Origin: Streptococcus sp.
Lineage (GTDB): Bacteria > Bacillota > Bacilli > Lactobacillales > Streptococcaceae
Reading direction: 5' to 3'
Length of the DNA: 64,000 bases
Assembly (NCBI RefSeq): GCF_032481935.1
Contig: NZ_JAWERU010000002.1
Location: 6,592-70,591 of the forward strand
A program made the translations under genes and the position numbers. This document shows, piece by piece, positions 10,197-64,000 of this stretch (the stretch's first letter is position 1; the number at the start of each line of letters is the position of its first letter). The notes below the pieces were generated by a model that made no database searches, was not told the DNA's origin, and saw nothing but the letters and a program-made list of their open reading frames with translations.

Positions 10197-10285
10197 TTCT
10201 ATTTCCTCCATAAAATTCTACTATCTTTATAGTAAACGTTTCCTTATAAAAAAGCAAGTCTTTTACACTAAATTAACGAAAAAAA

Positions 10286-10301
10286 TGTCAAACGTTTGAC
10301 A
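10286..10301. promoter_or_regulatory. Perfect 16-bp palindrome TGTCAAACGTTTGACA, a LacI-family (ScrR/cre-like) operator
   Basis: Exact inverted repeat in the divergent scrB/scrA intergenic region. Its half-sites resemble LacI/GalR operators. Confidence 0.65.
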
Positions 10302-10453
10302 GAATGTAGAAGCACTATTTTATGAAAATAATGAAAAAATGAAAGTTTTTGAAAATTTAAAAGTAAAAACCTTGAGTTTATAGGGTATTTATTGCTGTAT
10401 TGATGAAAAAATAGCAAAAACAATCAAAAAATAAAAATTAGCAAAATTTTTTC

Positions 10454-12443: not shown

Positions 12444-12596
12444 TACTCTTCGAAAATCAAATTCAAACTGCGTCATACTCGCTTTGCCGTATGTATGTGT
12501 TACTGACTTCGTCAGTTCTATCTACAACCTCAAAGCTGTACTTTGAGCAACCTGCAGCTCGATTCCTAGTTTGTTCTTTGATTTTCATTGAGTACA
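12444..12596 (-). repeat. BOX element (boxC-boxB-boxA, inverted)
   Basis: Begins TACTCTTCGAAAATCAAATTCAAAC immediately after the scrA stop codon and ends TTTGATTTTCATTGAGTACA. Confidence 0.88.
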
Positions 12597-25166: not shown

Positions 25167-25317
25167 ATACTCAATGAAAATCAAAGAGCAAACTAGGAAG
25201 CGAGCTGCAGGTTGCTCAAAGCACTGCTTTGAGGTTGTAGATAAGACTGACGATGTCAGTTACATATATCTACGGCAAGGCGAAGCTGACGTGGTTTGAA
25301 GAGATTTACGAAGAGTA
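25167..25317 (+). repeat. BOX element (boxA-boxB-boxC)
   Basis: ATACTCAATGAAAATCAAAGAGCAAACTAGGAAG ... GACGTGGTTTGAAGAGATTTACGAAGAGTA. Confidence 0.88.
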
Positions 25318-29934: not shown

Positions 29935-30086
29935 ATACTCAATGAAAATCAAAGAGCAAACTAGGAAACTAGCCGCAGGTTGCTCAAAGCACTGCTTTGA
30001 GGTTTTAGATAGAACTGACGAAGTCAGTAACATATATACGGCAAGGCGACGTTGACGCGGTTTGAATTTGATTTTCGAAGAGTATA
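29935..30086 (+). repeat. BOX element (boxA-boxB-boxC)
   Basis: ATACTCAATGAAAATCAAAGAGCAAACTAGGAAACTAGCCGCAGG ... GATTTTCGAAGAGTATA. Confidence 0.88.
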
Positions 30087-34971: not shown

Positions 34972-37900
34972 ATGAATACTAGAAAAATGCAGTTTGAGAG
35001 AGTCATTAAATACTCTATTCGGAAGTTCTCGGTTGGTGTCGGTTCTGCGGTTATCGGGACATTTCTTTTGGGGGCAAATAACTTTTTAGTTGAAACTGTT
35101 TCAGCTAACGAAGTGGTAACACCCAACCAAGTTCATTACCGTTATTTGGCTGAACAAGAATTGACAGAAGCAGAAAAAGCTTTGATCCATCACGAACTCC
35201 CTTCTGATTTAAAGCAAGATGATGTTGTCTATCTTGTTTACAGAAAGAAGGAAGTGAATTCTCAACAATTGCCAAACACTGGAAGCAAGGAGCTGGCACT
35301 GGCAACTCTTGGTTTTGCAACAGCGTCTATGGTTGTTGTGGTGATGTCTAAAAAACACCGCAATAAAATGCTTGGCCTTCTCTTTATCGGAGCTCTAGGT
35401 GGTAGTTACTTTATCCCTCAGTCAGCTCAAGCCTTTGAGAATAAAATCTTGGTTTCCTTCAATCAAACGATTGCAGCAAGTAGTCAAGAGGACTTGGCAA
35501 AAGGTGTCATTCAAATCGAAGGATACGAATACGTCGGTTACTTTAAAGCATCAGACTTCCAAGACCAACCAGAGCAAATGACGACTGCTAAGGGAACTCA
35601 AGAAGAAGGCCACGAAGGCGAATCTTTGGTTCAACCAGAGTTGCCAGCCTACACCGACGAACTTACAGCCAAAGGCACCCAAGAAGAAGGTCACGAAGGC
35701 GAATCCCTAGTTCAACCAGAAGCTCCAGCTTATACGGGCGAGATTAGTGCCAAAGGCACCCAAGAAAAAGGCCACGAAGGCGAATCCCTAGTTCAACCAG
35801 AGTTGCCAGCCTACACTAGCGAGATTAGTGCCAAAGGCACCCAAGAAGAAGGTCACCAAGGTGAGTCTTTGGTTCAGCCAGAGTTGCCAGCCTACACCGG
35901 CGAGCTTACAGCCAAAGGCACCCAAGAAGAAGGTCATGAAGGTGAATCCCTAGTTCAACCAGAAGTCCCAGCTTATACAGGCGAGCTTACAGCCAAAGGT
36001 ACCCAAGAAGAAGGCCACGAAGGCGAATCTTTGGTTCAACCAGAGTTGCCAGCCTACACCGGTGAGATCACAGCTAAAGGCACCCAAGAAGCAGGTCATG
36101 AAGGCGAATCCTTAATTCAACCAGAAACTCCAGCTTATACCGGTGAGATTAGTGCCAAAGGCACCCAAGAAGAGGGGCACCAAGGTGAATCTCTAGTTCA
36201 GCCAGAATCCCCAGCTTATACAGGCGAGATTAGTGCCAAAGGAACCCAAGAAGCAGGTCACCAAGGTGAATCCCTAGTTCAGCCAGAATTGCCAGAGTAT
36301 AAAGTAGCTGAAGCAACTATTACAGAAACTGAAACAGTAGCAGTTCCATATACAAAGGAGTATGTAGCTGATGATACTCGTTACACTGATGAAGAAACAG
36401 TGATTCAAAACGGTCAAGCAGGAAGTCAGCTGATTCATCGTGTCTATAAGACAGTCAATGGCCAAAAAGTTGGGGACCCAATCAGCACGAGTACAGAAAC
36501 TGTTACGGCACCAGTAAACGAAAAAATTAGTCGTGGTACAAAGGCTATTGAAGGTCAAGTTGAAGAAGTTTCATTTGAAGAAATTCCTTTCGAGACAAGA
36601 ACAGAAGTAGACAGCACTCTTCCGAAGGGAACAGAAGTTGTTGCTCAAGCTGGTCAAAACGGTAAGAAAAAGATTACCAAAGTCTATAAGACTCTTAAAG
36701 GAGTGAAAACTGCAGATGCTCCAACGATTTCAGAGGAAGTTGTTGAAGTAGTTCAAGATCGTATCATCAAAAAAGGTGATCAAATCCTGACTGAGCCAAC
36801 GTTGACTCTCACTCATATAGACAAAGAAGAATTAGAGCGTAGTGCCAAGGTTCGTTACCAATTGGTCAAACCAACAGGTGTAACCATTAAATCTCTTGAA
36901 GTTGTTTTGAAAGATGGAGACACTAGCCTTCAAACAGTCAATATGTCTGAGGGAGACCTGACTGCTAATCTTACAAACTTGAAGTATTACAAGGACTACA
37001 AGATTGCGACTAAGATGGTTTACGATCGTGGAAATGGGAATGAAGAAGTAGTTCTTGCGGAAGAACCACTAAGGCTGGATTTAAAGAAAATCGAGATTAA
37101 AGATATTCTAAGAACGGATTTGATCAAATATGAAAATCAAATCGAAATGGATGAAACTCGACTGACTTCAGTGCCAACCGACTTGTCAAACTATTATCTG
37201 AAAGTTACCTCTAATGACCATAAGACCAATCTACTAGCGGTTCAAAAAATCGAAGAGTCAACAATTGATGGAAAACAAGTCTACAAGGTAACAGCAGTAG
37301 CGGAGAACTTGGTTCAACGTAATGTCGATAATCGCTTTAATGAAACTTATACCTACTATATTGAAAAACCAAAAGCTAGTCAGGATGGTGTTTTCTACGA
37401 CTTTGGAGAATTGATCCAAGCCATTCAGGCAAATCCTGCTGGTGAATTTAAACTGGGTCAAAGTATGAGTGCTCGTAACGTTGTTCCTCAAGGTAAATCT
37501 TACATTACTTCGGAGTTTACTGGTAAACTATTGAGTGATGGTGACAAACGTTTTGCTATCCATAATTTGGAACATCCCCTCTTCAATGTCATTAATGGTG
37601 GGACTATTAAGAACATTAACTTTGAAAATGTAGATATTAATCGTTCTGGTCAAAATCAAATTGCTACGGTTGGATTTAACCTTAAAAATAAAGGTCTGAT
37701 TGAAGATGTTAAGGTGACTGGTTCGGTTACTGGTAACAATGATGTTGCAGGTATTGTCAATAAGATTGATGAAGATGGTAAGGTTGAAAATGTCGCCTTT
37801 ATTGGTAAAATCAACTCTGTAGGAAATAACTCGACAGTTGGTGGTATTGCTGGTTCAAACTATATGGGCTTTGTCAATAGAGCCTATGTAGATGCGACTA

Positions 37901-43094: not shown

Positions 43095-46000
43095 ATGGAA
43101 GATAGAAAAAAGCTACAAAAATTTGCCATTCGTAAACTGAGCATGGGAGTGGGCTCGGTATTGATTGGACTTGCCTTCATTGGAGGAACACTTGAACCGA
43201 AACTGGTTCAGGCTGATGAAACCAAGCAAGTTTCCTTTCATTACTTAGCAGAATCGGAGTTGACAGCTGCTGAACGTGAACTCATTCATCATGAATTGCC
43301 ACAAGATCTTAGTCAAGAGAGCTATTATCTAGTTTATCGCAAGCAGGGACAAGCCGTCTTACCTCAAACAGGATCCGTCACCTTCCCCTTGGCTGGTCTT
43401 GGTCTTTTGACTGCTAGTTTGGTGGTTTTCCTATTTTCCAAGAAAAAACCTTCTAAGATAGTTGGAGTGTTATTGATTGCTTCTGTAGGTAAGAGTTTAT
43501 TACTACCTTATCAAGTATTTGCTTTTGAACACAAGGACTTACTAGCTTATGATCAGACTAAAACCCTTGTGTCTGCTGATGGTTTATCACAAGGGATTAT
43601 AGACATTAAAGGCTATGACTATGTTGGTTATTTATTAGAGTCGGATTTAAGAGGAAGAGGCCAAGATCTAACGTCTAGTGGAAATCCAGAAATTCCTGCA
43701 AAGCCAGTAAATCAAGCAGGCGTTCATGAAATTCCTGAATTCACAGGTGGCGTATCTGGCGACTCCTTAGTCGAGCCAACAAAACCAACATTTGAAGGTG
43801 GAGTCAATGGCCCAGGTGCAGTAGCTGAAGCCATACCAGAGTATACACCGGAATTTAGCAGTCAAAGTGGCCTTCCAGAAGTCCGCAAAAAACCAGAATT
43901 TACAGGCGGAGTATCAGGCGAATCCTTTGTTGAGTCGTCTAAACCATCATTTGAGGGTGGTGTCAATGGCCCAGGAGCAGTAGCTGAAAGCTTACCAGAG
44001 TATACACCAGAATTTGGCAGTCAAAGTGGTCTTCCAGAAGTCCACGAGAAACCTGCCTTTACAGGCGGAGTATCAGGCGAATCCTTGGTCGAGCCAACAA
44101 AACCAACATTTGAGGGTGGTGTTAATGGCCAAGGAGCAGTAGCTGAAGCATTACCAGAGTACACACCAGAATCGAGTAGTCAAAGTGGCGTGCCAGAAGT
44201 CCACGCCAAACCAGACTTCACAGGCGGTGTATCCGGCGAATCCTTAGTTGAGCCAACAAAACCAACATTTGAAGGAAGCGTCAATGGTCAAGGAGCAGTA
44301 GCTGAAAGCTTACCAGATTATGAAGGTGGTGCAGTTCCAGTTGATACTCTGAAACAGGAGATTCCAGAGTTTACAGGTGGCGTATCCGGCGAATCCTTAG
44401 TCGAGCCGTCAAAACCAACATTTGAAGGTGGAGTTAATGGCCCAGGTACAGTAGCCGAAGACTTACCAGAGTATGAAGGTGGTGCAGTTCCAGTTGATAC
44501 TCTGAAACAGGAGCACCCAGAGTTCACAGGCGGCGTATTCGGCGAATCCTTGGTTGAGCCAACAAAACCAACATTTGAGGGTGGTGTTAATGGCCAAGGA
44601 GCAGTAGCTGAAACTTTACCAGAGTATGAAGGTGGTGCAGTTCCAGTTGAAACTTTGAAACAGGAACTATCCGAGTTTACAGGTGGCGTTAATGGTGAAC
44701 CGCTTGTTGAGCCTGCCCGACCTAGCTATGAAGGCGGAGTTAATGGCCTGGGTGCAGTGTCCGAAGCCTTACCAGAGTATGCACCAGAATTGAGTAGTCA
44801 AAGTGGCGTGCCAGAAGTCCATGACAAATCAGAGTTCACAGGCGGTGTATCAGGCGAATCTTTAGTTGAGCCGTCTAAACCAATATTTGAAGGTGGCGTT
44901 AATGGTCCGGGTACAGTAGCTGAAAGCCTACCAGATTATGAAGGAGGCGCAGTCCCAGTTGACACTCTGAAACAGGACACACCTAGCTATAGTGGTGGTG
45001 TGAATGCTACTGAAGCGCTGATTCAGGATACAAACCCGACTTTACATATTGAAGTCCGAAAAGAGTTGATTCCTAAACAAACTAGGGAAAAGATTGATCC
45101 AGACATGCTTGTCGGTGAAACAAGAATTGAGCAAGTCGGTCAAGATGGTGAGAAAGAGATTGTTACCAGCTATGAGGAAAAAGATGGGAAACGTATTTCA
45201 GAGCCGAAAGAAACAACACGGATTTTAAAAGAAGCTAAAGATCAGGTTATCATCCGTGGCAGTAAGGAAAAAGAAAAAATTAAACCTGAACCTGTCCTAA
45301 CTCTTTCAACTATTACTGGAAATTCGATGGGCCGTTCAGCTCGCCTAAGTTATAACTTGGAGAAGGCAGATGGTGTTACCATTTCAAAAATTAGTGCCAC
45401 TATTAAAGCTAAAGGGCTAGAGGATCAGACTCTTGACTTGACGAGTGATCAGCTGGAAGCAACAGTTGATAATCTGAAACTTTATACGGATTACACCATA
45501 TCTACAAGGATGGTCTTTAATCGTGGCAAGGGTGAAGAGAGCACTCTACTTGAGGAAAAGAAGCTTCGTTTAGAACTTAAAAAGCTAGAAATAAAAGATA
45601 TCAAGAAAACAAGCCTTGTTAAGGTTGAAAATGGCAAAGAGTCTGTGATTCAGCACTTGACAGAAGTGCCAAGAAACTTGGAAGACTATTATCTCAAGAT
45701 TAATTCAGAGGACCATAAGACTAGCCGTTTAGCCATCAAGTCTATTCAAACTGAAAGAATAAACGGAAAAGACTATTACAAGGTGACTGCTGAGGCAACT
45801 GACTTGATTCAACGTAATGCTCAGAAAACCTTTGAAGAAGGCTACAGTTACTACTTGGCTAAGTCAAGTGCTGATTCTCCTACGATTTCTGGTGTAAAAG
45901 AATACGCTTATCAGGATATCCAAGATTATGATAGTCGCCATGATCAAGCCTATCGAAACCTTGAAAAATTGCAACCTTTCTACAATAAAGAATGGATTGT

Positions 46001-48410
46001 AAATCAAGGAAACAAGCTGGATCTTGATCACAATCTAGCCAAGAAAGAGGTAGTCTCTGTTATTGCCATGAAAGGGAAAGACTTTGTGACAGACCTTTCA
46101 GTGGCAGACCATATCATGGTTCATTATGCAGACCAGACCAAGGATGTATTTGCAATTACCTCGCAAAATTCTGGCTTGACTGCTATTAAGGAATACAAGA
46201 TTGCTGACTTGGATGTGCTTTATACTCCAGATATGCTGGTTAAGGACCGTTCAGCCTTAGCCAAGGAGCTAACATCTATCCTGAAAACAGTGGACTTACA
46301 GTCTGAGGGAGTTTATCGAATCCTAGATGATCAAACCACTAGCCTTGATAAGAAGGTTGAGGCAGTGCAGAATTGGTACCTAGAAGAAAGCTTTGCAGAA
46401 GTCAAAGCGCAGCTGGGAAGCCTGGTTGATAAGTTACTTACAAATCTAGACTACCAGTGGAATGATTCTCTTGCTAGAACTGCTGCCTTGAAGAAAAAAG
46501 TTCAGGATCATCAATCAGCTATCATGCTTGGTCTTGCTTATCTCAATCGTTATTACGGTGTCCGATTTGCGGATTATAATCTGAAAGAACTCATGCTTTT
46601 TAAACCAGATTTTTATGGCAAAAATGTGGATGTCTTGGATCGGTTGATTGAACTCGGTTCAAGAGAAAGTAACCTAAAAGGCGACCAGACTCATGAAACC
46701 TTTGCCAGAGTCCTAGCCAAAGATACAAAATCTGAAGATTTACATGCCTTCTTAGACTACAACAGACAGTTATTGACGACTGACAAGGATATGAATGAAT
46801 GGTTTGTGAATGCCACCAAGGACCATGTGTACATAGCAGAGCGAGCTTCGAAGAATCAAGAAATTGCAAATCGGAAGCATCGTGCTTATGACAATCTGAA
46901 TAACTGGTTGCATCGCAATATGATTCTGCCTTTGTTGAATGTAAAGAAGGCGCAGATGTTCCTGATTTCCAACTACAATACCATTACTTTCGGATCAGCT
47001 GATAAATCTGGCAAAACCATAGACCAGATGAAAGCTGACATTGATCTAGTAGCGGACCGCCAGTTGACTTACTTGGACTTCTGGTATCGACTTGCTACTG
47101 ATGAAGTTAAAGACCGTATGGTTAAGAGTGATTTTAATGTAGCTACACCAGTTTGGGAAGGTTATCGCGTTGATAGACGTGGCTGGGTAGAGCGTTATGG
47201 ACATACTAGTGGTATGGAAGACTATGCACCAATTCGAGAGGTATTTGGACCAGCAGGTCGCTACTATAAAGACAATAAACTAGGAGCCTATGCCTCTATC
47301 TATCCTAATATCAATGCCAGAGATGCTGTGCACTTTGTAGAAATAGATATGATGAGTGAGTATGGCTTGTCTGTCTACACCCATGAGACAACGCACGTCA
47401 ACGATCGTATTGTCTATCTGGGGGGATACAAACATCGTGAAGGAACCTATGTAGAAGCCTATGCTCAGGGTATGCTCCAGTCACCGGCTGAGGAAGGCCA
47501 TCAGGGTGAATATGGCGCTCTCGGGCTCAACATGGCTTACATGCGACCAAATGATGGGGATCAATGGTACAATCCAGATCCAACCAAGTTGCAAACACGT
47601 CAGCAGATTGACCACTACATGAAAGGTTATAATGAGGCTTTGATGCTTCTAGATTATCTGGAAGGAGAACGAGTTCTCGCTAAGAATGATCTGGCTTTGA
47701 AGAAGGCTTGGTTCAGCAAGATGACCAAGCAGATGCGCTATCAGGACAAGGACAATAAACTCCTTGCTCCTAATCAGTGGGACTATGTCCGTCCATTGAC
47801 AGATGAGGAAGCCAAGACTCAGCTAAATTCTGTAGATGATCTAATCAAAAATAACATCATCACCAATAGGCATTATCAGGGAACTTACCGACCAGAAGAA
47901 CTCAAGACAGCTTATGTCAATGTCAAGATGGTAGATGCTATCTACGGTGGAAATACAAGTCAGGGAGCTCCTGGAGCCATCTCCTTCAAACATAATGCTT
48001 TCCGTATGTGGGGTTATTATGGTTACGAAAATGGTTTCCTAGGCTATGCTTCTAATAAATACAAGGATGAGGCCTTAAGCGAGGGACGTGACACCCTTGG
48101 GGATGATTTCATTATCCAGAAGGTTTCGAAAGGCAAGTTCCAGAACTTGGAAGAATGGAAGAAGGCCTGGTTTGACGCTATTATTGCTAAGGCAAAACGA
48201 GGAATCCATAGTTTTGAAATTGATGGTCAGCAAATTGATTCTTATGAGAAATTGCAAGATTTGTTTGACCAAGCAGTAGAAACGGATTACCGAAACTTCA
48301 AGTATGGAGGCTCAGTTGCCAATTATACAGTAGCGCTGAAGAAAAAAGTCTTCCAAAAACTATTGCAGGTGACAGATGCATTTTCATCTGAACTCTTTCC
48401 TAAAGGATAG
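43095..48410 (+). CDS. Second M26-family surface zinc metalloprotease paralogue, 1771 aa
   Basis: Signal peptide with FAIRKLSMGVGS, an N-terminal LPQTG and two TM helices. Eight 51/55-aa repeats and one G5 domain. HETTH zinc site at 47382-47396. Collinear with gene 1 but lacks its GLUG-like segment of about 320 aa. Confidence 0.85.
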   Translation: MEDRKKLQKFAIRKLSMGVGSVLIGLAFIGGTLEPKLVQADETKQVSFHYLAESELTAAERELIHHELPQDLSQESYYLVYRKQGQAVLPQTGSVTFPLAGLGLLTASLVVFLFSKKKPSKIVGVLLIASVGKSLLLPYQVFAFEHKDLLAYDQTKTLVSADGLSQGIIDIKGYDYVGYLLESDLRGRGQDLTSSGNPEIPAKPVNQAGVHEIPEFTGGVSGDSLVEPTKPTFEGGVNGPGAVAEAIPEYTPEFSSQSGLPEVRKKPEFTGGVSGESFVESSKPSFEGGVNGPGAVAESLPEYTPEFGSQSGLPEVHEKPAFTGGVSGESLVEPTKPTFEGGVNGQGAVAEALPEYTPESSSQSGVPEVHAKPDFTGGVSGESLVEPTKPTFEGSVNGQGAVAESLPDYEGGAVPVDTLKQEIPEFTGGVSGESLVEPSKPTFEGGVNGPGTVAEDLPEYEGGAVPVDTLKQEHPEFTGGVFGESLVEPTKPTFEGGVNGQGAVAETLPEYEGGAVPVETLKQELSEFTGGVNGEPLVEPARPSYEGGVNGLGAVSEALPEYAPELSSQSGVPEVHDKSEFTGGVSGESLVEPSKPIFEGGVNGPGTVAESLPDYEGGAVPVDTLKQDTPSYSGGVNATEALIQDTNPTLHIEVRKELIPKQTREKIDPDMLVGETRIEQVGQDGEKEIVTSYEEKDGKRISEPKETTRILKEAKDQVIIRGSKEKEKIKPEPVLTLSTITGNSMGRSARLSYNLEKADGVTISKISATIKAKGLEDQTLDLTSDQLEATVDNLKLYTDYTISTRMVFNRGKGEESTLLEEKKLRLELKKLEIKDIKKTSLVKVENGKESVIQHLTEVPRNLEDYYLKINSEDHKTSRLAIKSIQTERINGKDYYKVTAEATDLIQRNAQKTFEEGYSYYLAKSSADSPTISGVKEYAYQDIQDYDSRHDQAYRNLEKLQPFYNKEWIVNQGNKLDLDHNLAKKEVVSVIAMKGKDFVTDLSVADHIMVHYADQTKDVFAITSQNSGLTAIKEYKIADLDVLYTPDMLVKDRSALAKELTSILKTVDLQSEGVYRILDDQTTSLDKKVEAVQNWYLEESFAEVKAQLGSLVDKLLTNLDYQWNDSLARTAALKKKVQDHQSAIMLGLAYLNRYYGVRFADYNLKELMLFKPDFYGKNVDVLDRLIELGSRESNLKGDQTHETFARVLAKDTKSEDLHAFLDYNRQLLTTDKDMNEWFVNATKDHVYIAERASKNQEIANRKHRAYDNLNNWLHRNMILPLLNVKKAQMFLISNYNTITFGSADKSGKTIDQMKADIDLVADRQLTYLDFWYRLATDEVKDRMVKSDFNVATPVWEGYRVDRRGWVERYGHTSGMEDYAPIREVFGPAGRYYKDNKLGAYASIYPNINARDAVHFVEIDMMSEYGLSVYTHETTHVNDRIVYLGGYKHREGTYVEAYAQGMLQSPAEEGHQGEYGALGLNMAYMRPNDGDQWYNPDPTKLQTRQQIDHYMKGYNEALMLLDYLEGERVLAKNDLALKKAWFSKMTKQMRYQDKDNKLLAPNQWDYVRPLTDEEAKTQLNSVDDLIKNNIITNRHYQGTYRPEELKTAYVNVKMVDAIYGGNTSQGAPGAISFKHNAFRMWGYYGYENGFLGYASNKYKDEALSEGRDTLGDDFIIQKVSKGKFQNLEEWKKAWFDAIIAKAKRGIHSFEIDGQQIDSYEKLQDLFDQAVETDYRNFKYGGSVANYTVALKKKVFQKLLQVTDAFSSELFPKG
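43728..45000 (+). repeat. Tandem array of eight 165/153-bp units (two alternating linker types) inside zmp gene 2
   Basis: The core is (E/D)FTGGVSGESLVEP(T/S)KPTFEGGVNG(P/Q)GAVAE.LP(E/D)Y. It is followed either by TPEFSSQSGLPEVxxKP (55-aa unit) or by EGGAVPVDTLKQE (51-aa unit). The order is L-L-L-S-S-S-L-S. Confidence 0.9.
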
Positions 48411-55059: not shown

Positions 55060-56290
55060 AACGGAGAAAAAAGAGGAGCGAGTCCTGCTGATTGGTGTTG
55101 AACTTCAGGGCATGGATAATTTTGACCTCTCCATGGAAGAACTGGCTAGTCTGGCTAAGACGGCTGGTGCAGTTGTAGTCGATAGCTACAGACAAAAACG
55201 TGAAAAATACGACTCCAAGACCTTCGTCGGTTCTGGTAAGTTGGAAGAAATTGCTCAAATGGTGGACGCAGAGGAAATCACGACAGTCATTGTCAACAAC
55301 CGTCTGACACCTCGTCAAAATGTCAATTTAGAAGAAGTTCTAGGGGTCAAGGTTATTGACCGTATGCAGTTGATTTTGGATATCTTTGCCATGAGAGCTC
55401 GAAGCCATGAAGGAAAGCTTCAAGTTCATCTTGCGCAACTCGAGTACCTCTTGCCTCGTTTGGTGGGTCAGGGGATTATGCTTAGCCGTCAGGCAGGGGG
55501 CATTGGTTCTCGTGGTCCAGGTGAAAGTCAGCTGGAGCTTAACCGTCGTAGTGTTCGCAATCAGATCACAGATATTGAGCGTCAACTCAAAGTCGTTGAG
55601 AAAAATCGAGCGACAGTTCGAGAAAAACGTTTGGAGTCAAGTACCTTTAAGATTGGTTTGATTGGCTACACCAATGCTGGAAAGTCAACTATCATGAACA
55701 CCTTGACTAGCAAGACTCAGTATGAGGCAGATGAGCTCTTTGCGACTCTGGATGCGACAACTAAAAGCATTCATCTGGGGGGCAATCTACAGGTAACCTT
55801 GACAGATACCGTTGGATTTATTCAAGATTTACCGACAGAGTTGGTGTCTAGTTTCAAGTCGACCTTGGAAGAAAGCAAGCATGTGGATCTTCTGGTTCAT
55901 GTTATCGATGCCAGCAATCCTTACCACGAGGAGCATGAAAAAACGGTTCTGTCCATCATGAAAGACTTGGATATGGAAGATATTCCGCGCCTGACCCTCT
56001 ACAATAAAGCCGATTTGGTGGAGGATTTCACGCCTACCCAAACGCCTTATGCACTCATTTCTGCCAAGTCTGAGGATAGTCGTGAGAACTTGCAGACTTT
56101 ATTTTTAGAGAAAATCAAGGAGATTTTTGAGAGCTTTACCCTGCGCGTGCCTTTTTCAAAATCCTATAAAATTCATGATTTAGAAAGTGTTGCAATTCTG
56201 GAAGAACGCGATTATCAGGATGGCGGCGAAGTCATTACAGGCTGCATTTCTGAAAAAAATAAATGGAGGTTAGAGGAATTTTATGACTGA
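55052..56290 (+). CDS. hflX: GTPase HflX
   Basis: HflX N-domain plus G-domain motifs [14 protein letters not shown] and NKAD. Overlaps miaA by 8 nt. Confidence 0.92.
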
Positions 56291-56906
56291 TATTAAAACT
56301 TTAGCTCTAAAGTATGGAGGTTATACAAGTCTGGATAAGGTCTTTCTGGATCAGCTTCTAGCTGGTAAAACAGAACAGGAGCAGTTGGCCCTTATCACGC
56401 CTCCGCCAAGTGTGGTCAATGCCTACTTTGCTGAACTCTACCAGAAAAAGAGTCCTGAGGCTGCGATGGATTATTTTGCAGAACTCAGCCAGGAACTGAA
56501 TCTCTACAATGTTGAGCCAAGCTTCACCATAGAAAACAAGCCTTTTATTCGTCTTAATTTATCTGGAAAATCCTTTGGTTTTTGCTATGAGAGTGAGGGT
56601 CTGGGTCGAATTTTTTCTGAAAATAAAGAAGTTATTTCGGAAGATTTGCTCTTTGAAATTGCGCAAATTTTTCCTCATCAACTAGTCTTTGAAGAGTCTG
56701 GTAAGATTTACATGAAGGCTGTTGGAGATGAGGAAGTTGTTAGTGTGGAGAGTCTCACGGCTTTGACGGATTTAGAAAGCTTGGCTGATGGTCGTAAGCG
56801 TCTCAAAGGCTACAGCCAAGAGGATTTACTGCAAGAAGCTAAAGCTTTTTCTGGCAAGCGCTATTTCCGATCGGAAAACCGCACAGCCATGTTATATATT
56901 GATTAA
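56283..56906 (+). CDS. Conserved hypothetical protein
   Basis: 207 aa, soluble, with no motif I recognise. Overlaps hflX by 8 nt, which implies co-translation. Confidence 0.6.
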
Positions 56907-56920
56907 TTAGAAAGTATCGA

Positions 56921-57850
56921 ATGGACATTCAATTTTTAGGAACGGGGGCTGGTCAGCCCTCTAAAGCCCGTAACGTCTCAAGTCTCGCCCTGAAACTCTT
57001 GGATGAGATTAATGAAGTTTGGCTCTTTGACTGTGGAGAAGGAACGCAAAATCGCATTCTGGAAACCACAATTCGACCACGTAAGGTCAGCAAAATCTTT
57101 ATCACCCACCTGCATGGAGACCACATTTTTGGCTTGCCAGGATTCCTTTCTAGCCGTGCTTTTCAGGCCAATGAAGAGCAGACAGATTTGGAAATCTATG
57201 GACCTCAAGGGATCAAGTCCTTTGTTTTAACCAGCCTTCGTGTGTCGGGTTCTCGTTTGCCCTACCGCATTCATTTTCATGAATTTGATCAAGATTCTCT
57301 AGGAAAAATCCTGGAGACCGATAAGTTTACGGTGTATGCAGAGGAGTTGGACCACACTATTTTCTGTGTTGGCTATCGTGTCATGCAAAAGGATTTGGAA
57401 GGAACTTTGGATGCTGAAAAACTCAAGGCTGCTGGAGTCCCATTTGGCCCACTTTTTGGAAAAATCAAAAACGGTCAGGATGTTATCCTAGAAGACGGCA
57501 CCGAGATCAAGGCAGCAGACTACATCTCAGCACCGCGACCTGGTAAGATTATCACCATTTTGGGAGATACTCGAAAAACAGATGCTAGTGTGCGTCTTGG
57601 GGTCAATGCGGATGTTCTTGTCCATGAGTCCACTTATGGTAAAGGTGATGAGAAAATTGCCCGCAATCATGGTCACTCAACCAATATGCAGGCTGCTCAG
57701 GTAGCGGCAGAAGCAGGAGCCAAACGACTCTTGCTCAACCATATCAGTGCACGCTTCCTTTCAAAAGACATTAGTCAACTCAAGAAAGATGCGGCAACGA
57801 TTTTTGAAAATGTCCATGTGGTTAAAGACCTAGAAGAATTGGAAATCTAG
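56921..57850 (+). CDS. rnz: Ribonuclease Z
   Basis: Metallo-beta-lactamase motif HLHGDH and a size typical of RNase Z. Confidence 0.92.
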
Positions 57851-57870
57851 GATCTCGAGAAAGGATAAAT

Positions 57871-58626
57871 ATGTCTACTATTCTCATTACGGGTGCTAGT
57901 GGTGGTCTAGCCCAAGAAATGGTCAAACTCTTGCCCAATGATCAATTGATTTTGCTGGGTAGAAATAAGGAAAAATTAGCTCAACTATACGGAAATCATC
58001 CTCAGGTAGAATTGATTGAAATTGATATTACTAATGAGCAAGCCTTAGAAGGACTGGTAGCTGACCTCTATCTCCGTTATGGTAAGATTGATGTTTTGAT
58101 TAACAACGCTGGCTACGGGATTTTTGAGGATTTTGACAAGATTTCTAATCAAGATATTCATCAAATGTTTGAGGTTAACACCTTTGCTCTCATGAATCTA
58201 TCACGTTTGCTTGCAGCTCGTATGAAGGAGATGCGAAAAGGGCATATCATCAATATCGTCAGTATGGCAGGATTGATAGCGACTAACAAGTCCAGTCTAT
58301 ACTCTGCGACCAAGTTTGCGGCCATTGGTTTTTCAAATGCTTTGCGCCTCGAACTCATGCCCTATGGTGTCTATGTGACAACGGTTAATCCAGGCCCAAT
58401 CCGTACAGGATTTTTTGACCAGGCTGATCCAGACGGCAGTTATCTCAAATCGGTTGACCGTTTCCTACTCGAGCCAGATGTAGTAGCTAGAAAGATTGTC
58501 AAAACCATAGGGAAAAACAAACGAGAACTCAATCTCCCAGTCTTACTCAATCTAGCCCATAAGTTTTATACCCTCTTTCCCAAGCTAGCAGATAAGTTGG
58601 CTGGAGAAACCTTTAATTATAAGTGA
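57871..58626 (+). CDS. Short-chain dehydrogenase/reductase
   Basis: TGASGGLA cofactor motif, NNAG and the catalytic YSATK. Confidence 0.88.
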   Translation: MSTILITGASGGLAQEMVKLLPNDQLILLGRNKEKLAQLYGNHPQVELIEIDITNEQALEGLVADLYLRYGKIDVLINNAGYGIFEDFDKISNQDIHQMFEVNTFALMNLSRLLAARMKEMRKGHIINIVSMAGLIATNKSSLYSATKFAAIGFSNALRLELMPYGVYVTTVNPGPIRTGFFDQADPDGSYLKSVDRFLLEPDVVARKIVKTIGKNKRELNLPVLLNLAHKFYTLFPKLADKLAGETFNYK

Positions 58627-58828
58627 TAAAGCTGTTTCCTTGAGGAATGGCTTTTTGCTTTAATTAGGAGAAGTTGTTCATCGAAAATAATCCCTAAAAA
58701 TACTGGTATTTTATCTCTATTTGATAGTTTTAGAGTATAATTGAGATAAGAAAGGTCATTAGATAAATGAAGTCCCAAACCAGCTAGCTTACCCTAGATA
58801 ATGCCCTATGTATAGTCGGAGGTCGACA

Positions 58829-59398
58829 ATGGAATTATTGACAATTGACCAAATCATTTCCCTTACCCAAGAAGAAACACAAGGGCTGGACCCTGAGATA
58901 AGAGAAGGGATTGTCCTTAATAAAACAGATTTGCCAGTGTCCGAATTGGATCGTTTGAAAAGTCAACTTCAAATCCAAGATTTGGATCCGATTTTTTGGA
59001 AGTATATTCTGGCCTATAACTGGGGGCAGGTCGGTTTTTTAAGTTACCAGTTTGGATATGGGGACGACACTAGTTTGACTTGGTTGATCAATCGCAATTT
59101 GAAATACCATGATTACTCAACTCTACAAGAAAGCGGCCTGATCATCATTGCAAATGGAGATCCCTACACTATTTTGCTGGATTGTCAATCTGGGGTAGTC
59201 TATGCTCTTGATGCAGAGATGAACTATGATGAAAAAATATGGCTGGCACCAGATTTTCTAGCATTTGTTAGAGCCATGGGAACGGCCCAATTTGCAGTTT
59301 GGAAGGGTTGTGAAAGTGACTTCATCCACTTGATGACTAGAAAAGGCCATGAGTCCAGTTTGATATTCTGGCAGAGTCTGGTCGGATTTTATGATTGA
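58829..59398 (+). CDS. SUKH (SMI1/KNR4)-like protein, putative immunity protein
   Basis: LQIQDLDPIFWKYILAYNWG followed by IIIANGDPYTILLDCQSGVVYALD, the two-block SUKH layout. ATG 58829 lies 7 nt after GGAGG. No signal peptide or TM helix. Confidence 0.5.
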   Translation: MELLTIDQIISLTQEETQGLDPEIREGIVLNKTDLPVSELDRLKSQLQIQDLDPIFWKYILAYNWGQVGFLSYQFGYGDDTSLTWLINRNLKYHDYSTLQESGLIIIANGDPYTILLDCQSGVVYALDAEMNYDEKIWLAPDFLAFVRAMGTAQFAVWKGCESDFIHLMTRKGHESSLIFWQSLVGFYD

Positions 59399-59416
59399 AA
59401 ATAGAAGGAGCAGGTC

Positions 59417-59854
59417 ATGGAATTTATAGTAGCTGAGGAGGGAATTCCTCAAAATATCGGATGTCAGGGAGCCTTGATTGCCTATTATGGCAGTGAGATA
59501 GAATTTCATTATGAAACCGTGCCACCGCACGGTGATGAGATTTTTTCTGCCAAGTTGCCTTTGTTAGAGCTTGAACTACCCTTTTGGATCTATGGGAGAA
59601 ATCTCATATTCTTAGACGCTTACTACCTTTTAGCTGAAACTGTTAAGAAAGGAACGTGGAATCCCATAACCAGTATACTTATCAACATTCATATGGGGAA
59701 GTACGCCAGCCTAGATCACTGGTACAATCATATATCTATTGAGCAAGACGGTCTTGAGTTGAAAAATGATTATGATGGACAAGTCCTGACTTTGAAAACT
59801 GTTGACAATCTTCATTGGATTGCCCTAGACGCTATATCAGAAGAAAGGAACTAA
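59417..59854 (+). CDS. Hypothetical cytoplasmic protein (145 aa) in the immunity-like cluster
   Basis: Good RBS (GAAGGAG, 6-nt spacer) and tight packing with both neighbours. No recognisable family. Confidence 0.55.
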   Translation: MEFIVAEEGIPQNIGCQGALIAYYGSEIEFHYETVPPHGDEIFSAKLPLLELELPFWIYGRNLIFLDAYYLLAETVKKGTWNPITSILINIHMGKYASLDHWYNHISIEQDGLELKNDYDGQVLTLKTVDNLHWIALDAISEERN

Positions 59855-59856
59855 AA

Positions 59857-60921
59857 ATGGCAAAGAAAAGAGTAACTTTACCCAAGGACTTCAATGAACT
59901 ACTAACTGATGGCAATATTGACCAATTAAAGGCCGTGTATGACAAGTGTGAGCTAACTGCCCATAACGGGAGATATAGTTTAAGTACGGCTCTGCATTTT
60001 GGTGGGGTTCCTGATGAGCTGGTTATCTGGCTTGTCGAACAGGGCTTAGATATTAATATCCCTGATTATTATGGTGCAACTCCTTTGTATCGTCAGGCAA
60101 CCATGGGGAGAGAGACTGTAAAACTCTTGCTTGAATTGGGGGCAGATATTGAAAAAAGCAATACTTATGGAAATACACCTCTACACATGGCAGCTGAGTT
60201 TTTTCATCCTAAGACAGTTGCGCTTCTCTTAGAAAAGGGGGCAAGTGTCCATTCTAAGAATGATAGGGGGCAAACTCCCCTAGACTCTGTTCTCACTGTC
60301 TGTCGGGGAATCTATATTGCCCAAACAGCTGAGATCGCCTCTATGCTTCTGGATGCGGGTGCTAAGAAAACACCAGCCATGAAAGAAAAGGTCGAAAATA
60401 TTGGTAAAGATTTTGAGTTTCATAGAGAAGGGATCAATCCTGACTATTTGGAAGCAGCAGATAAGGGTTTAGCCAAACTTTATCGTTTGTTTGATGTCAA
60501 GCCAGTAGCCAAACGAATAACTCATGATGGAGTTTCTACGATTTTAGTAAAAGAAGGTAGTTGGGAGGAGCAATATGAGGAACTTTGGTCCTTCTTAATC
60601 CCTTCAAGTGGCGCAGCAAAAACTGTTCAGGGAGAAGTTATCCGTATACCAGGTCGAGTTCGAGATGAACTGGATCGTAATGGTGGGGCCAACTGGGACA
60701 GGGACTATAGAAAAATGCTTCAGACTCTCCCTCAATATTTGTCTCTAGGAAATCCCCTTTCAGAACAAGAATTAGCAGAGACTAAAGACCTTATTGCTCA
60801 GGTTCATGGGAAAGATTTTGATGACGAGCCTCGCCTAGACCGCCTGTGTCAGCTAGCTATTGCTTGGATTAAGCAAAATCCTGAACCCTTTCTCCTAGCA
60901 AAAACAAGTTATAAGCGTTAA
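59857..60921 (+). CDS. Ankyrin-repeat protein
   Basis: At least three consecutive ANK repeats: GATPLYRQATMGRETVKLLLELGADI, GNTPLHMAAEFFHPKTVALLLEKGASV and GQTPLDSVL. A helical C-terminal domain of about 200 aa follows. ATG 59857 lies 2 nt after the upstream stop. Confidence 0.75.
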   Translation: MAKKRVTLPKDFNELLTDGNIDQLKAVYDKCELTAHNGRYSLSTALHFGGVPDELVIWLVEQGLDINIPDYYGATPLYRQATMGRETVKLLLELGADIEKSNTYGNTPLHMAAEFFHPKTVALLLEKGASVHSKNDRGQTPLDSVLTVCRGIYIAQTAEIASMLLDAGAKKTPAMKEKVENIGKDFEFHREGINPDYLEAADKGLAKLYRLFDVKPVAKRITHDGVSTILVKEGSWEEQYEELWSFLIPSSGAAKTVQGEVIRIPGRVRDELDRNGGANWDRDYRKMLQTLPQYLSLGNPLSEQELAETKDLIAQVHGKDFDDEPRLDRLCQLAIAWIKQNPEPFLLAKTSYKR

Positions 60922-60961
60922 AAAGCATTGGAAGACAGATAAAAAAAGAAATCATGGTGAA

Positions 60962-61552
60962 ATGATGCAACTAATTGACCAAGTTAAGAAAATAGAAACT
61001 TATATTTGTGAGTATTTTGAAGACTGGGATTTGGATGATCCCGTGGAAGAGGAACACCTAGATGATTATCAGAATATTTCTGGTGCTTCCGAGGAAGAGC
61101 TTCAAGCCTTTGAGGAAAGACTTGGTATTCGTCTACCTAGTGACTTCAAAGCGCTTTATAGCTACAAAAATGGGAGTAAATACTTCTCTATTTTACCTTG
61201 TGTGATTGACCAGAGAGAGCTGCCTTTTTCTCTCATGAGTTTGCAGGAAATGGAAAGTTGTAAAAAGTACTTTCAAAATAGAGATGCTTTATTAACAGAA
61301 TTTCCCGACTATTTTTCTAGTCAAGATCTGGAAAATATGCGTGATAGTAGAATAAAGCCCTATCTTTTTAATAAAAAATGGATTCCTTTTGCTCAGTATT
61401 GTGACTCTTGTTATCTTATGCTGGATTTTGATCCAGACCGAGAGGGTCAGGAAGGGCAGATTATTTGCTACATCCATGATCCTGATGAAATTATCTATGT
61501 AGCAGAAAATCTTACGGAGTTGATTGAAGGGATAGTGGATGAGATCAAATGA
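60962..61552 (+). CDS. SMI1/KNR4 (SUKH-1) family protein, putative immunity protein
   Basis: EEELQAFEERLGIRLPSDFKALYSYKNGS ... KWIPFAQYCDSCYLMLDFDPD ... GQIICYIHDPDEIIYVAENL, the canonical SMI1/KNR4 pattern. Confidence 0.75.
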   Translation: MMQLIDQVKKIETYICEYFEDWDLDDPVEEEHLDDYQNISGASEEELQAFEERLGIRLPSDFKALYSYKNGSKYFSILPCVIDQRELPFSLMSLQEMESCKKYFQNRDALLTEFPDYFSSQDLENMRDSRIKPYLFNKKWIPFAQYCDSCYLMLDFDPDREGQEGQIICYIHDPDEIIYVAENLTELIEGIVDEIK

Positions 61553-62298
61553 ACGGACAAATGTATCAGATAGCCTGTATCGTGGCAGCCGCTAGGAAGG
61601 CTTTAAAAAATGATAAAGAAATATGCTATAAGCCTGAAAAATATACAAATAAGTTGAGCTTTCAAATTTTGCCGTCAGAAAAGGGGGAAGTTATAGAACT
61701 ATCTGTATCTGATTGGTTTGAAAACCTTAAGGAAAAAGGTTTGAAGGATTTACAATTATTTTGTCCTATTTCAGTTGAAGACAGAGGGATTTTAGGATTT
61801 TCCAATACAACACAGAGTGCAATTCTCTGTTTTTATAAAGATGGGAAGGCAAGTTATTTCCTATCAAATTGGAAATCTGCTTCCTCAGGCAGAGGCTGGG
61901 ATGTCACCTACACCGAGTATGAATGGGAAAGGTCTTCTCAAGACATTCCTCACTATGAAAATAATCTGGAAGAATTTAAGGACGTATTGGCTCGTATAGA
62001 AGATCTAGCAATTAAAATTGAATGTGAGAACTTTGCAAAAGTCTTTCACTCTGCCAGAAACTTTTTGCTAGACCCAGAATCTGGTAAAGGACTGGCAGAA
62101 CCTCAAATTCCACCGCAACATCTAAGCATATTTAGAGCTGCAAGTGCAGCGGATGTTTTTGGAGCAATGGGTTCCTGGAATGATGAACCTGGATGGCTGG
62201 CACAAGATAAGGGACTGGGTCAAGTATACGATGAACTTTCGGATCAGTTGCTAAGAAATATTCGATTAGCCATTCTATTTGCCATCAATGAATGGTGA
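61549..62298 (+). CDS. Hypothetical cytoplasmic protein (249 aa), translationally coupled to the SMI1/KNR4 gene
   Basis: ATGA start/stop overlap at 61549-61552. No recognisable family. The conserved-looking C-terminal block is FGAMGSWNDEPGW...YDELSDQL. Confidence 0.55.
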   Translation: MNGQMYQIACIVAAARKALKNDKEICYKPEKYTNKLSFQILPSEKGEVIELSVSDWFENLKEKGLKDLQLFCPISVEDRGILGFSNTTQSAILCFYKDGKASYFLSNWKSASSGRGWDVTYTEYEWERSSQDIPHYENNLEEFKDVLARIEDLAIKIECENFAKVFHSARNFLLDPESGKGLAEPQIPPQHLSIFRAASAADVFGAMGSWNDEPGWLAQDKGLGQVYDELSDQLLRNIRLAILFAINEW

Positions 62299-62303
62299 TT
62301 GTT

Positions 62304-62409
62304 TATACTCTTCAAAAATCAAATTCAAACCACGTCAGCTTCGCCTTGTCGTACTCGAGTACAGCCTTTGGCTAGCTTCCTAGTTTGCTCTTTGATTTTC
62401 ATTGGGTAT
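62304..62409 (-). repeat. BOX element (boxC-boxA, inverted) inside the immunity-like cluster
   Basis: TATACTCTTCAAAAATCAAATTCAAACCACGTCAGCTTCGCCTTG ... CTAGTTTGCTCTTTGATTTTCATTGGGTAT. It starts 6 nt after the upstream stop and ends 1 nt before the next gene's RBS (TAGGAGGAAG). Confidence 0.85.
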
Positions 62410-62422
62410 TAGGAGGAAGAAA

Positions 62423-63379
62423 ATGGGGAAGCTAAAGTTAAGCCTATTAAAAAAATGGGAACTAGACAAGGACTATAATAGTGTTCTCAATTCTGTCATG
62501 TTACAGGATGGTAGAGCCTTTGTCTTGACCAGTGAGAAGGAAGATTTCAATCGCTACTGTCTGCTTGAAGTATCGCCTTTGGGTGTGAAGGAGATAGATG
62601 CTTGGGATTGTGACCATGTTTGGGAGGAAGAGCCTCTACTCTTTACAGATGGACAAAACATTGGCATCATCAAGGCTGGTAAGGAAATAGTCTATTATAC
62701 TGGTGATTTTTCTCATCCAGAAATCATTGCCATAAAGGATTCGCAAAGTATACTTCCTAAAAAGGCACAAGAGAGATATTTTCAAATAGTATCAGATAGC
62801 GACCAGATACCCGTGTGTTTTGAAGATCAAGTTTATTCAAATCAGGCAAGAAACTTTGCCCTTTTAGAATTTGATAGAGAGAAAAAGCAGGCTAAGTGGA
62901 CCACTTATTCGCATATTGATAAAAAAGATTTAAACCACCACGACAGGAGCACAGATGCTTGTCCTAAAATCGATAGTCTGAAATGGTGGCAGCAAGAGCT
63001 TTATGCCTTTAGCTCTGGAGAAAGCCAAACCTCCGTCAATAAATGGGGCATGGACTATTATGCCCTAGTTAAAATCTCTAGTGATGGTCGTATTATCGAA
63101 AAGTTATTAGAATCTGAACATTTAAAGGCTTTAGGTAAAAAAGCTGGTGTCAATGGACTCTTTACGGATTCGCCTTATCTTATCCTGAGCCCCCTATTTA
63201 AGAATGATGACTGGAAAGGCAAGCAAAAGCTATTTTCTCTGGCAACAAGAGAACTGTGCGAAATAGCCATGCCTAGAGGAATGAGTAAACATAAGGTTCA
63301 AAATATAACAGACAACTATTGTTTAACCTTTCTGTACGACAGAGGATTAAAAGAACTTGCCCTTTGTCAGATTGACTAG
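62423..63379 (+). CDS. Hypothetical cytoplasmic protein (318 aa)
   Basis: ATG 62423 lies 7 nt after AGGAGGA. The track start at 62402 lies within the BOX element. No recognisable family. Confidence 0.55.
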   Translation: MGKLKLSLLKKWELDKDYNSVLNSVMLQDGRAFVLTSEKEDFNRYCLLEVSPLGVKEIDAWDCDHVWEEEPLLFTDGQNIGIIKAGKEIVYYTGDFSHPEIIAIKDSQSILPKKAQERYFQIVSDSDQIPVCFEDQVYSNQARNFALLEFDREKKQAKWTTYSHIDKKDLNHHDRSTDACPKIDSLKWWQQELYAFSSGESQTSVNKWGMDYYALVKISSDGRIIEKLLESEHLKALGKKAGVNGLFTDSPYLILSPLFKNDDWKGKQKLFSLATRELCEIAMPRGMSKHKVQNITDNYCLTFLYDRGLKELALCQID

Positions 63380-63575
63380 GCTGTGAGGCTGATTTTGAGA
63401 GCTTTTTTATTGATAGGTGCTGAAATTTCTTGATTAGTCTACAGTATCTATTTTGTGCTGTTTTTTGTGAAATTTGACCAAGTATTGCAAATAAACAGTT
63501 AAAATAGTATACTAGAACTAGCAATTATGAAAATGTTTGCACTTTTGTTGATGATGATTATTTAGGAGACAAGAC

Positions 63576-64000
63576 ATGGAATTAACAGCCATTTATCATA
63601 GACCAGAATCAGAGTATGCTTATCTTTATAAGGAAGGTCAGCTACATATTCGAATTAGAACCAAGAAAAATGATGTCCAGCAGGTCATTCTACACTATGG
63701 TGATCCCTTTATTTTTATTGAGGATAAGTATGAAGCTAAGAATGAAATGACCAAAGTAACCTCAGACGCCTTGTTTGATTATTGGCAGGTTACAGTATCG
63801 GTTGATTTTGCACGGATTCAGTATCTCTTTGAACTTCTTGATAAGGAAGGTCAGGGAGTCTTCTACGGAGATAAGGGTTGTGTAGAACATACTCAAGAAA
63901 ACTTGGATGCTGAAGGAAATGGCTTTAAACTTCCTTACATTCACGAAATCGATGGTTGCCAAGTTCCAAGCTGGGTTTCAAATACCGTTTGGTACCAGAT
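63576..64000 (+). CDS. GH13 neopullulanase/cyclomaltodextrinase-type alpha-glycosidase, N-terminal part (continues beyond window)
   Basis: Frame is open from ATG 63576 (AGGAG 6 nt upstream) to the window end. The N-terminus MELTAIYHRPESEYAYLYKEGQLHIRIRTKKND resembles the N-domain of maltogenic amylase/neopullulanase enzymes. Absent from the ORF track because there is no stop in the window. Confidence 0.6.
   Translation, partial: MELTAIYHRPESEYAYLYKEGQLHIRIRTKKNDVQQVILHYGDPFIFIEDKYEAKNEMTKVTSDALFDYWQVTVSVDFARIQYLFELLDKEGQGVFYGDKGCVEHTQENLDAEGNGFKLPYIHEIDGCQVPSWVSNTVWYQ

Follow-up and report, generated by a model that had tools for sequence, protein, structure and literature searches.

The closest described counterpart of the locus analysed here is the heterogeneous polyimmunity locus, which Zhang et al. 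(2012, Biol Direct 7:18; PMC3482391) characterize as a tandem run of immunity genes without intervening toxins, in the same orientation and with short gaps, whose content varies between strains; an adjacent XerC/D-type recombinase accompanies several cases and is not obligatory. The same paper presents Streptococcus oralis as an oral taxon that has few toxins and whose polyimmunity loci hold many immunity genes, and lists Treponema denticola and Capnocytophaga as likewise toxin-poor and immunity-rich. In streptococci, orphan tipC immunity genes are kept without a cognate LXG toxin (Klein et al. 2018, PMC6193138). Here we describe an island of six genes, ORF1 to ORF6, on the plus strand of a 64,000-nucleotide stretch of Streptococcus sp. 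DNA (contig NZ_JAWERU010000002.1; the whole stretch is called the window), located between a short-chain dehydrogenase/reductase (SDR) gene and a glycoside hydrolase family 13 (GH13) gene. The island is probably an orphan heterogeneous polyimmunity operon, each product of which would bind a cytoplasm-acting toxin delivered by neighbouring bacteria.

Acquired interbacterial defence (AID) gene clusters, reportedly described in gut Bacteroidales by Ross et al. in 2019, resemble the island in that both are orphan arrays of immunity genes, variable among strains and exchanged horizontally. The likeness extends to relatives of ORF5 in gut Firmicutes, which lie on putative elements of the integrative and conjugative or integrative and mobilizable type (ICE/IME-like), marked by a serine recombinase, Mob_Pre or DUF961. 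Unlike AID clusters, the island itself has no mobile-element or recombinase genes, the threat to its host would come from toxins of a secretion system of type VIIb (T7SSb) or other Gram-positive toxins rather than from the type VI secretion system, and protection is here a prediction. Bacillus subtilis YobK (PDB entry 2prv), which we take to be the immunity protein of the LXG toxin YobL, offers a second comparison: ORF4 belongs to the same Pfam family, SMI1_KNR4, and the model of ORF1 aligns with 2prv, 3d5p, Knr4 and Syd. In contrast to the YobK/YobL pair, the island has no adjacent toxin, and ORF1 has diverged beyond the reach of the Pfam models.

Compared with the polyimmunity loci of Zhang et al. 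(PMC3482391), the island has the same tandem, same-strand, tightly spaced and unrelated immunity-type genes, is toxin-free and variable, and belongs to an oral host; it differs in that ORF2, ORF5, ORF6 and the C-terminal domain of ORF3 fall outside the Pfam Imm families, and in having no adjacent XerC/D-type recombinase. With the orphan tipC genes (PMC6193138) it shares immunity genes without a cognate toxin, presumably directed against toxins of neighbours, but TipC is membrane-anchored, surface-exposed and counters a cell-wall toxin, whereas the six island proteins are predicted to be cytoplasmic and are unrelated to TipC. A first-pass annotation of this DNA, made from its sequence, overstated the novelty of the find, S. 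oralis having already been named immunity-rich and toxin-poor by Zhang et al. 2012 (PMC3482391). A literature search, with the supplementary catalogue of that paper outside its scope, turned up no publication dealing with DUF4241 or with this particular locus. What is added here is incremental, namely the map of one locus and its population variation, for a concept, and even a host species, described in 2012.

Composition of the island

Two of the six proteins fall into families that Pfam recognises directly, in agreement with the first-pass annotation. ORF4 matches SMI1_KNR4 (PF09346) with an E-value of 8.3e-25 and a score of 88.2 bits, against a cut-off of 25.4, and ORF3 matches Ank_2 (E 1.1e-27) in three stretches, with repeats spanning approximately residues 40–175. 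The C-terminal half of ORF3 (~175 residues) gave no Pfam match and no PDB match in a single-sequence search. The description of Imm-Ank proteins, with ankyrin repeats encoded in a polyimmunity-type context, fits ORF3.

ORF1, also suggested earlier to be SUKH-like, is assigned to the SUKH superfamily as a divergent member. Taken alone, it has no direct match in Pfam, NCBIfam, PADLOC or PHROGs. Exhaustive searching of 1.8 billion representatives with phmmer retrieved 74 relatives; when ORF1 was aligned with 45 full-length ones, 35 of these 46 sequences matched SMI1_KNR4. The AlphaFold (AF2) model of ORF1 (pLDDT 94) has as its top Foldseek matches in the PDB 3d5p of the SMI1/KNR4 family (E 5.6e-4), yeast Knr4, B. 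subtilis YobK and Syd. The assignment is made because the relatives match SMI1_KNR4, by transitive homology, and because the modelled fold matches SUKH structures. Hidden SUKH domains in ORF2, ORF3, an extra ankyrin protein of related loci and a 209-residue partner of ORF5 (both described below) were considered and dropped as unsupported: an hhalign comparison of each with the ORF1/SUKH profile gave nothing significant.

The descriptive features of a polyimmunity locus that could be tested in the island were all found, apart from the optional recombinase. Several unrelated immunity-type proteins are present, three of the six being assignable (SUKH twice, Ank once). No toxin interrupts the array: toxin-type domains are absent from the six ORFs in Pfam and NCBIfam searches, and toxin or secretion domains are absent from the flanking genes in a scan with Pfam only. 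Genes for an LXG or other secreted toxin, WXG100 or EssC were likewise not found in or beside the cluster within the window, and the earlier statement that no toxin gene accompanies the cluster holds to this extent. The genes share one orientation and are separated, from ORF1 to ORF6, by 18, 2, 40, -4 and 124 nt, where -4 denotes an ATGA overlap of ORF4 with ORF5 and the last gap shrinks to 18 nt in loci without a BOX element; a polycistronic message is predicted from this layout. Gene content differs among close relatives, as detailed in the next section. All six proteins are acidic (pI 4.2–5.7), and, as the first-pass annotation had also judged, none has a transmembrane-like segment (maximum 19-residue Kyte-Doolittle score below 1.2).

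If the island is a polyimmunity operon, each protein would most likely act alone: it would bind, and so block, the toxin domain, active in the cytoplasm, of an effector that comes from a neighbour, typically a T7SSb/LXG toxin in Firmicutes, and the strain would survive toxins not of its own making. The array appears to spread among Mitis-group species by homologous recombination, and it is reshaped by gain, loss and decay of single genes. We infer the binding of toxins, and which toxins these might be, from what is known at the family level about SUKH and ankyrin proteins, which serve in immunity to polymorphic toxins and to which at least three of the six proteins belong. If true, a toxin-poor oral commensal would persist in dense biofilms by stockpiling antidotes and swapping them between species.

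Variation and exchange in the Mitis group

The interval between the SDR and GH13 genes was compared in 80 Mitis-group species representatives, anchored on the SDR gene with 10 kb on each side; these are the closest SDR matches of 478, and the sample is therefore biased towards relatives of the source strain. Of the 80, 26 carry the island, in at least five content variants, besides empty sites, and the view that the interval is variable rather than universal was confirmed. Twenty-four of the 26 island loci carry ORF2 to ORF6, five of them without ORF1, and the other two hold ORF3 and ORF4 only. In six Mitis loci an extra ankyrin gene of 355 codons lies between ORF3 and ORF4 (L031:13071-14138, L009, L029, L044, L059 and L084; L numbers designate related loci and contigs). 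Intergenic spacing in the 26 loci is 18, 2, ~41 and -4 nt, save where an extra gene is inserted. In some island loci ORF4, ORF5 or ORF6 is truncated or split, leaving pseudogenes. The extra ankyrin gene was also observed in a distant contig (L104:4932-6008); the C-terminal 120 residues of its product look SUKH-like by eye, with no hhalign support.

Where the island is absent, SDR and GH13 are separated in four genomes by an empty site of ~180 nt; in nine, a small membrane-protein gene alone occupies this position, and the remainder carry quite different content 3' of SDR. Judged from gene content, the site 3' of SDR is best described as a general hotspot of variation. Alignment of empty and occupied sites revealed no direct repeats or att-like junctions. 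No toxin-like ORF cluster was seen among those examined in the 10 kb 3' of SDR across the 80 loci, only part of which were Pfam-scanned.

Further cargo was noted at the post-SDR site. In many S. mitis representatives it encodes small membrane proteins, a regulator of the Rgg-like type and surface proteins with choline-binding repeats that reach 1193 residues; one genome has a 920-residue double-AAA protein and others a 2601-residue surface protein (loci with variant cargo: L035, L048-L051, L054, L066, L078 and L081). An S. infantis representative carries an AraC/GyrI-like regulator and DUF1706/DinB-like genes between ORF6 and GH13 (L024:15657-17082). Just past GH13, outside the window, many island-bearing genomes have genes for DUF4241 and for a third SUKH-1 protein (L009:17900-18622, L038:14460-15020), and a DUF4241 and SUKH pair stands directly 3' of ORF2-like and Ank genes in the streptococcal contig L095. 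The GH13 gene may lie inside a larger, split immunity region.

Substitution rates were compared across 17 island-bearing loci and the window. The flanking genes hflX, rnz and SDR have a dS of 0.62–0.68 and a dN/dS of 0.02–0.07, and ORF1, ORF2, ORF4, ORF5 and ORF6 a dS of 0.14–0.23 and a dN/dS of 0.15–0.26; ORF3 is the most divergent island gene, with a dS of 0.50 and a dN/dS of 0.14. The island genes are under purifying selection, looser than that on the housekeeping flanks. Chance ORFs or pseudogenes are ruled out as an account of the island by dN/dS values of 0.14–0.26 together with full-length homologues. With the exception of ORF3 (0.50), dS in the island is 3–4 times below that of the flanks; horizontal exchange is indicated, the alleles of the island being far younger than the species in which they occur.

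The neighbourhood of the island is a mosaic. Identity is 100% with Streptococcus sp. HMSC056C01 over 56.8–58.8 kb, with S. infantis SY98 over 60.0–60.4 kb, and with S. infantis OMI699 over 61.6–63.6 kb. On this sequence evidence, homologous recombination in the conserved flanks seems to be how the island moves. No recombinase is found among the genes of 54–64 kb and no mobile-element or conjugation genes in the window, which rules out a prophage or ICE fragment there. Over the mosaic region (56800-63600), segments match L007, L024 and L052 fully, and elsewhere the best match reaches only 94–97%.

Unplaced families and competing explanations

ORF2, ORF5 and ORF6 have no match in Pfam, NCBIfam, PADLOC or PHROG, and searches of PDB sequences with all three single sequences, and with profiles for ORF5 and ORF6, returned no usable match. 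The PDB entry 3d0j was rejected as an ORF5 relative, its single-sequence match (E 0.025) having disappeared in the profile search.

ORF2 context: the ORF2 family (260 homologues) was seen only in streptococcus-like contigs, with 70–96% identity among the matches listed. In another streptococcus (L095), an ORF2-like gene is preceded by a two-component system and followed by genes for a 354-residue ankyrin protein, DUF4241, a SUKH protein and an aldose epimerase. An oral metagenome contig has an ORF1-like SUKH gene, an ORF2-like gene and fragments, and an ORF1-like SUKH gene adjoins the ORF2 homologues in L190 and in a contig of 35% GC (L104). In another contig, an ORF2-like gene is embedded among small unannotated genes that continue on one strand over a long stretch. 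In L095, the stretch between the Ank and DUF4241 genes (10100-10361) holds in-frame remnants of the extra ankyrin gene (its N-terminal end) and of ORF4 (its C-terminal end). These remnants are read as a deletion scar, a trace of gene loss inside such arrays.

ORF5 conservation and fold: the ORF5 family is large (450 homologues) and highly conserved, with 63 invariant columns in an alignment reaching down to 50% identity and with the motifs LGFSN, DVFGxMGSWNDxP and a C-terminal NEW. In the AF2 model (pLDDT 82) the N-terminal domain is alpha+beta, and the C-terminal part is a helical bundle. No significant fold match was found in the PDB or BFVD; the best PDB matches are weak NTF2/SnoaL-like ones, and an NTF2 fold is not claimed, their E-values being 0.08 or worse. 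ORF5, the only unplaced protein checked in this way, was thus not assigned to a metabolic or housekeeping fold, an assignment that the first-pass annotation had named as damaging to its reading.

ORF5 context: in the 35% GC contig, ORF1 to ORF5 are syntenic and 59–76% identical to the Mitis-group proteins, and the array continues beyond ORF5 with a 209-residue protein, Imm68 and, adjoining Imm68, a 27%-identical paralogue of ORF6. A protein of 207–209 residues was observed directly 3' of the ORF5 homologue in two unrelated lineages (L001:10823-11446 and L104:7487-8116; 65% identical) and may be a conserved partner of ORF5; its 207-residue form matches SMI1_KNR4 below threshold (E 0.003). In one assembly the ORF5 homologue adjoins DUF4240, DMP19 and SUKH genes, and in two lineages it is solitary among housekeeping genes. 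In metagenomic contigs of gut Firmicutes, ORF5 homologues lie directly 3' either of AAA_25 and a Mob_Pre relaxase or of paired DUF961 genes, the latter a mark of Tn916-type elements. Also present on these gut contigs are a large serine recombinase, SUKH and Imm33, along with restriction-modification genes, HipBA and genes for lipoproteins and small membrane proteins. Gene content identifies these gut relatives of ORF5 as putative cargo of ICE/IME-like elements. A group II intron reverse transcriptase, DUF5037 lipoproteins and a gene resembling a penicillin-binding-protein (PBP) transpeptidase were also observed near ORF5 homologues in gut loci (L168, L170, L174-L182, L185-L188).

ORF6 context: the ORF6 family has 224 homologues, and those with 50–61% identity occur in three phyla, represented by Clostridia, Treponema and Bacteroidota. 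In Clostridiales bacterium COT073 the homologue is part of a same-strand array, two genes away from a protein with PoNi_N and PoNi_C domains; PoNi corresponds to the Imm-PA2201 family of Zhang et al. 2012 (PMC3482391). Small unplaced genes come one after another behind the homologue of Treponema putidum, and a further homologue was found in a Bacteroidota contig bearing gldB/gldC. The listing of T. denticola and Capnocytophaga as immunity-rich fits this cross-phylum distribution. A scan for ORF6 relatives in viral contigs found none.

The earlier interpretation of the island holds in part, and for ORF2, ORF5 and ORF6 an immunity role is a candidate one. In other streptococci, Clostridia, Treponema and Bacteroidota their homologues share same-strand arrays with SUKH, Ank, DUF4241, Imm33, Imm68 or PoNi genes, and from this co-location with known immunity families, by guilt by association, we infer a putative immunity role for all three. 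No recognisable toxin gene adjoined such homologues in the neighbourhoods sampled. A broader claim, held tentatively as a possible rather than a probable one, is that new immunity families absent from Pfam are represented by ORF2, ORF5 and ORF6 and perhaps also by ORF3 in its C-terminal domain, that the ORF5 family has spread between oral and gut Firmicutes on Mob_Pre- or Tn916-type elements together with SUKH and Imm33, that members of the ORF6 family have passed from phylum to phylum among Firmicutes, Spirochaetes and Bacteroidota, and that the whole might be a Gram-positive counterpart of AID. If the polyimmunity reading is right, the three uncharacterised families are concrete candidates for new immunity proteins.

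Several observations weigh against a polyimmunity operon. An adjacent XerC/D-type recombinase, optional in such loci, was not found. None of the ORF2, ORF5 or ORF6 homologues in about twenty distinct neighbourhoods stands beside a recognisable toxin gene, a pattern that the first-pass annotation had itself named as damaging; the sample is small, and polyimmunity loci are toxin-free by definition. The conservation of ORF5 is unusually high for an immunity protein, and the gene is sometimes solitary among housekeeping genes; neutralisation of a toxin by any of the six proteins is an expectation drawn from their families and neighbours. The retention of ORF1–ORF5 order and spacing in the distant 35% GC contig, at 59–76% amino-acid identity, would also fit a co-functional operon serving a non-toxin process, such as a stress, regulatory or protein-interaction module with SUKH and Ank as generic binding parts. 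The spacing held constant in the 26 loci apart from inserted genes, the 4-nt overlap of ORF4 with ORF5 and the repeated adjacency of ORF5 to a SUKH protein in unrelated contexts point the same way. The modules, however, separate freely: ORF5 is found alone, ORF6 alone in other phyla, ORF3 with ORF4 alone, ORF1 with ORF2 alone, ORF2 and Ank with other partners, and whole islands without ORF1, and single genes decay while the rest are retained. Given this modularity, we regard a shared non-toxin function as unlikely.

Rather improbable, in our judgement, is a role as anti-phage defence or anti-defence cargo instead of interbacterial immunity. ORF4 matches the PADLOC candidate model PDC-M40A (7.5e-18) and ORF3 matches PDC-M72A (3.4e-14), and ORF5 homologues occur directly 3' of Mob_Pre or DUF961 genes and near restriction-modification and toxin-antitoxin genes. 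The PADLOC matches are, however, single-protein and domain-level ones to unvalidated candidate models, and the window holds no known defence-system component; the ankyrin and SUKH proteins match only PHROG families of unknown function, the scan of viral contigs gave no relative of ORF6, and the BFVD search gave no fold match for ORF5. A third explanation, to which we give only a slim chance, takes ORF2 and/or ORF5 as toxin-like or enzymatic modules with the next gene (ORF3, ORF6, or SUKH elsewhere) as antidote, or the island as the remnant of an LXG locus without its delivery domain. Invariant polar residues give ORF5 an enzyme-like pattern of conservation, in several lineages a SUKH or SUKH-like gene lies 3' of it, an ankyrin gene follows ORF2 after 2 nt in three contexts, and HipBA and PemK/MazE modules are nearby in some loci. 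Yet the gene 3' of ORF5 varies between ORF6, genes for an 87-residue and a 119-residue protein, DUF6892, SUKH, DUF4240 and nothing, and a toxin with a dedicated antidote is therefore unlikely. ORF2 and ORF5 are, moreover, acidic full-length ORFs with ribosome-binding sites (RBS) of their own, neither has a Pfam toxin domain, and the ORF5 model, the one available for this comparison, matches no toxin or enzyme fold. The polyimmunity operon remains the reading we favour.

Layout of the locus and other features of the window

The ORF listing of the window contains all six ORFs between the SDR and GH13 genes at the positions given in Table 1. Together with inspection of the sequence, it bears out the description of six same-strand ORFs with their gaps, the ATGA overlap and GGAG-type RBS. 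Start codons at 58829, 59857 and 62423 are preferred over the longest-ORF starts at 58808, 59815 and 62402, because GGAG-type RBS precede them and the resulting lengths of 189, 354 and 318 residues match those of homologues.

Table 1. Positions of the island genes and of associated sequence features in the window.
Feature	Position	Strand	Remarks
Terminator-like hairpin (intrinsic)	58628..58654	+	11-bp stem and T-rich tail, just 3' of the SDR stop; left edge of the island
Candidate island promoter, perfect TATAAT -10	58736..58741	+	Sequence inspection; without a good -35
ORF1	58829..59398	+	189 aa; assigned as a divergent SUKH-superfamily protein
ORF2	59417..59854	+	145 aa; acidic, unplaced family
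ORF3	59857..60921	+	354 aa; N-terminal ankyrin repeats and C-terminal domain of ~175 aa
ORF4	60962..61552	+	196 aa; SMI1/KNR4 (SUKH-1)
ORF5	61549..62298	+	249 aa; unplaced, highly conserved family
BOX-type repeat	62304..62404	+	boxA 62304-62339 and boxC 62371-62404; between ORF5 and ORF6
ORF6	62423..63379	+	318 aa; unplaced family
Right junction and retained GH13 promoter/RBS region	63450..63596	+	Collinear with empty-site genomes from ~63450
Promoter-like TTGCAA-17-TATACT	63485-63513		Promoter scan; within the right junction region

The margins of the island also agree with the first-pass annotation, which had placed it behind a weak terminator and a TATAAT box, between rnz/SDR and GH13. Empty-site genomes have a different terminator at the position of the left-edge hairpin. 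The TATAAT box was not listed by a consensus promoter scan because it has no good -35. Pfam identifies the flanks as a tRNase Z-type metallo-beta-lactamase (rnz) and an adh_short SDR on one side and a GH13 N-terminal domain on the other, and the gene order over 54–64 kb is miaA-like, hflX-like, an unplaced gene, rnz, SDR, the island and GH13.

A BOX element between ORF5 and ORF6, noted at the first pass, was found with both boxA and boxC, and it is polymorphic: the gap between the two genes is 18 nt in 20 related loci and 124 nt in six loci and the window. The element is a ~106-nt polymorphic insertion, since the 20 loci without it have the 18-nt gap. BOX elements are typical of pneumococcus and Mitis-group genomes. 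The window has five copies of the boxC motif and two of the boxA motif, where chance would give zero, and BOX-type elements lie at 7688-7721, 12557-12590, 25172-25205, 29940-30086 and 62304-62404.

Elsewhere in the window, two large M26 zinc metalloproteases of the IgA1-protease/Zmp type, with a YSIRK signal, G5 and Peptidase_M26_N/C domains, are encoded at 34972-40866 and 43095-48410, with a redoxin gene and an msrAB fusion between them. A 207-residue ORF without a Pfam match lies between the hflX-like gene and rnz (56283-56906) and appears to be a conserved core gene.

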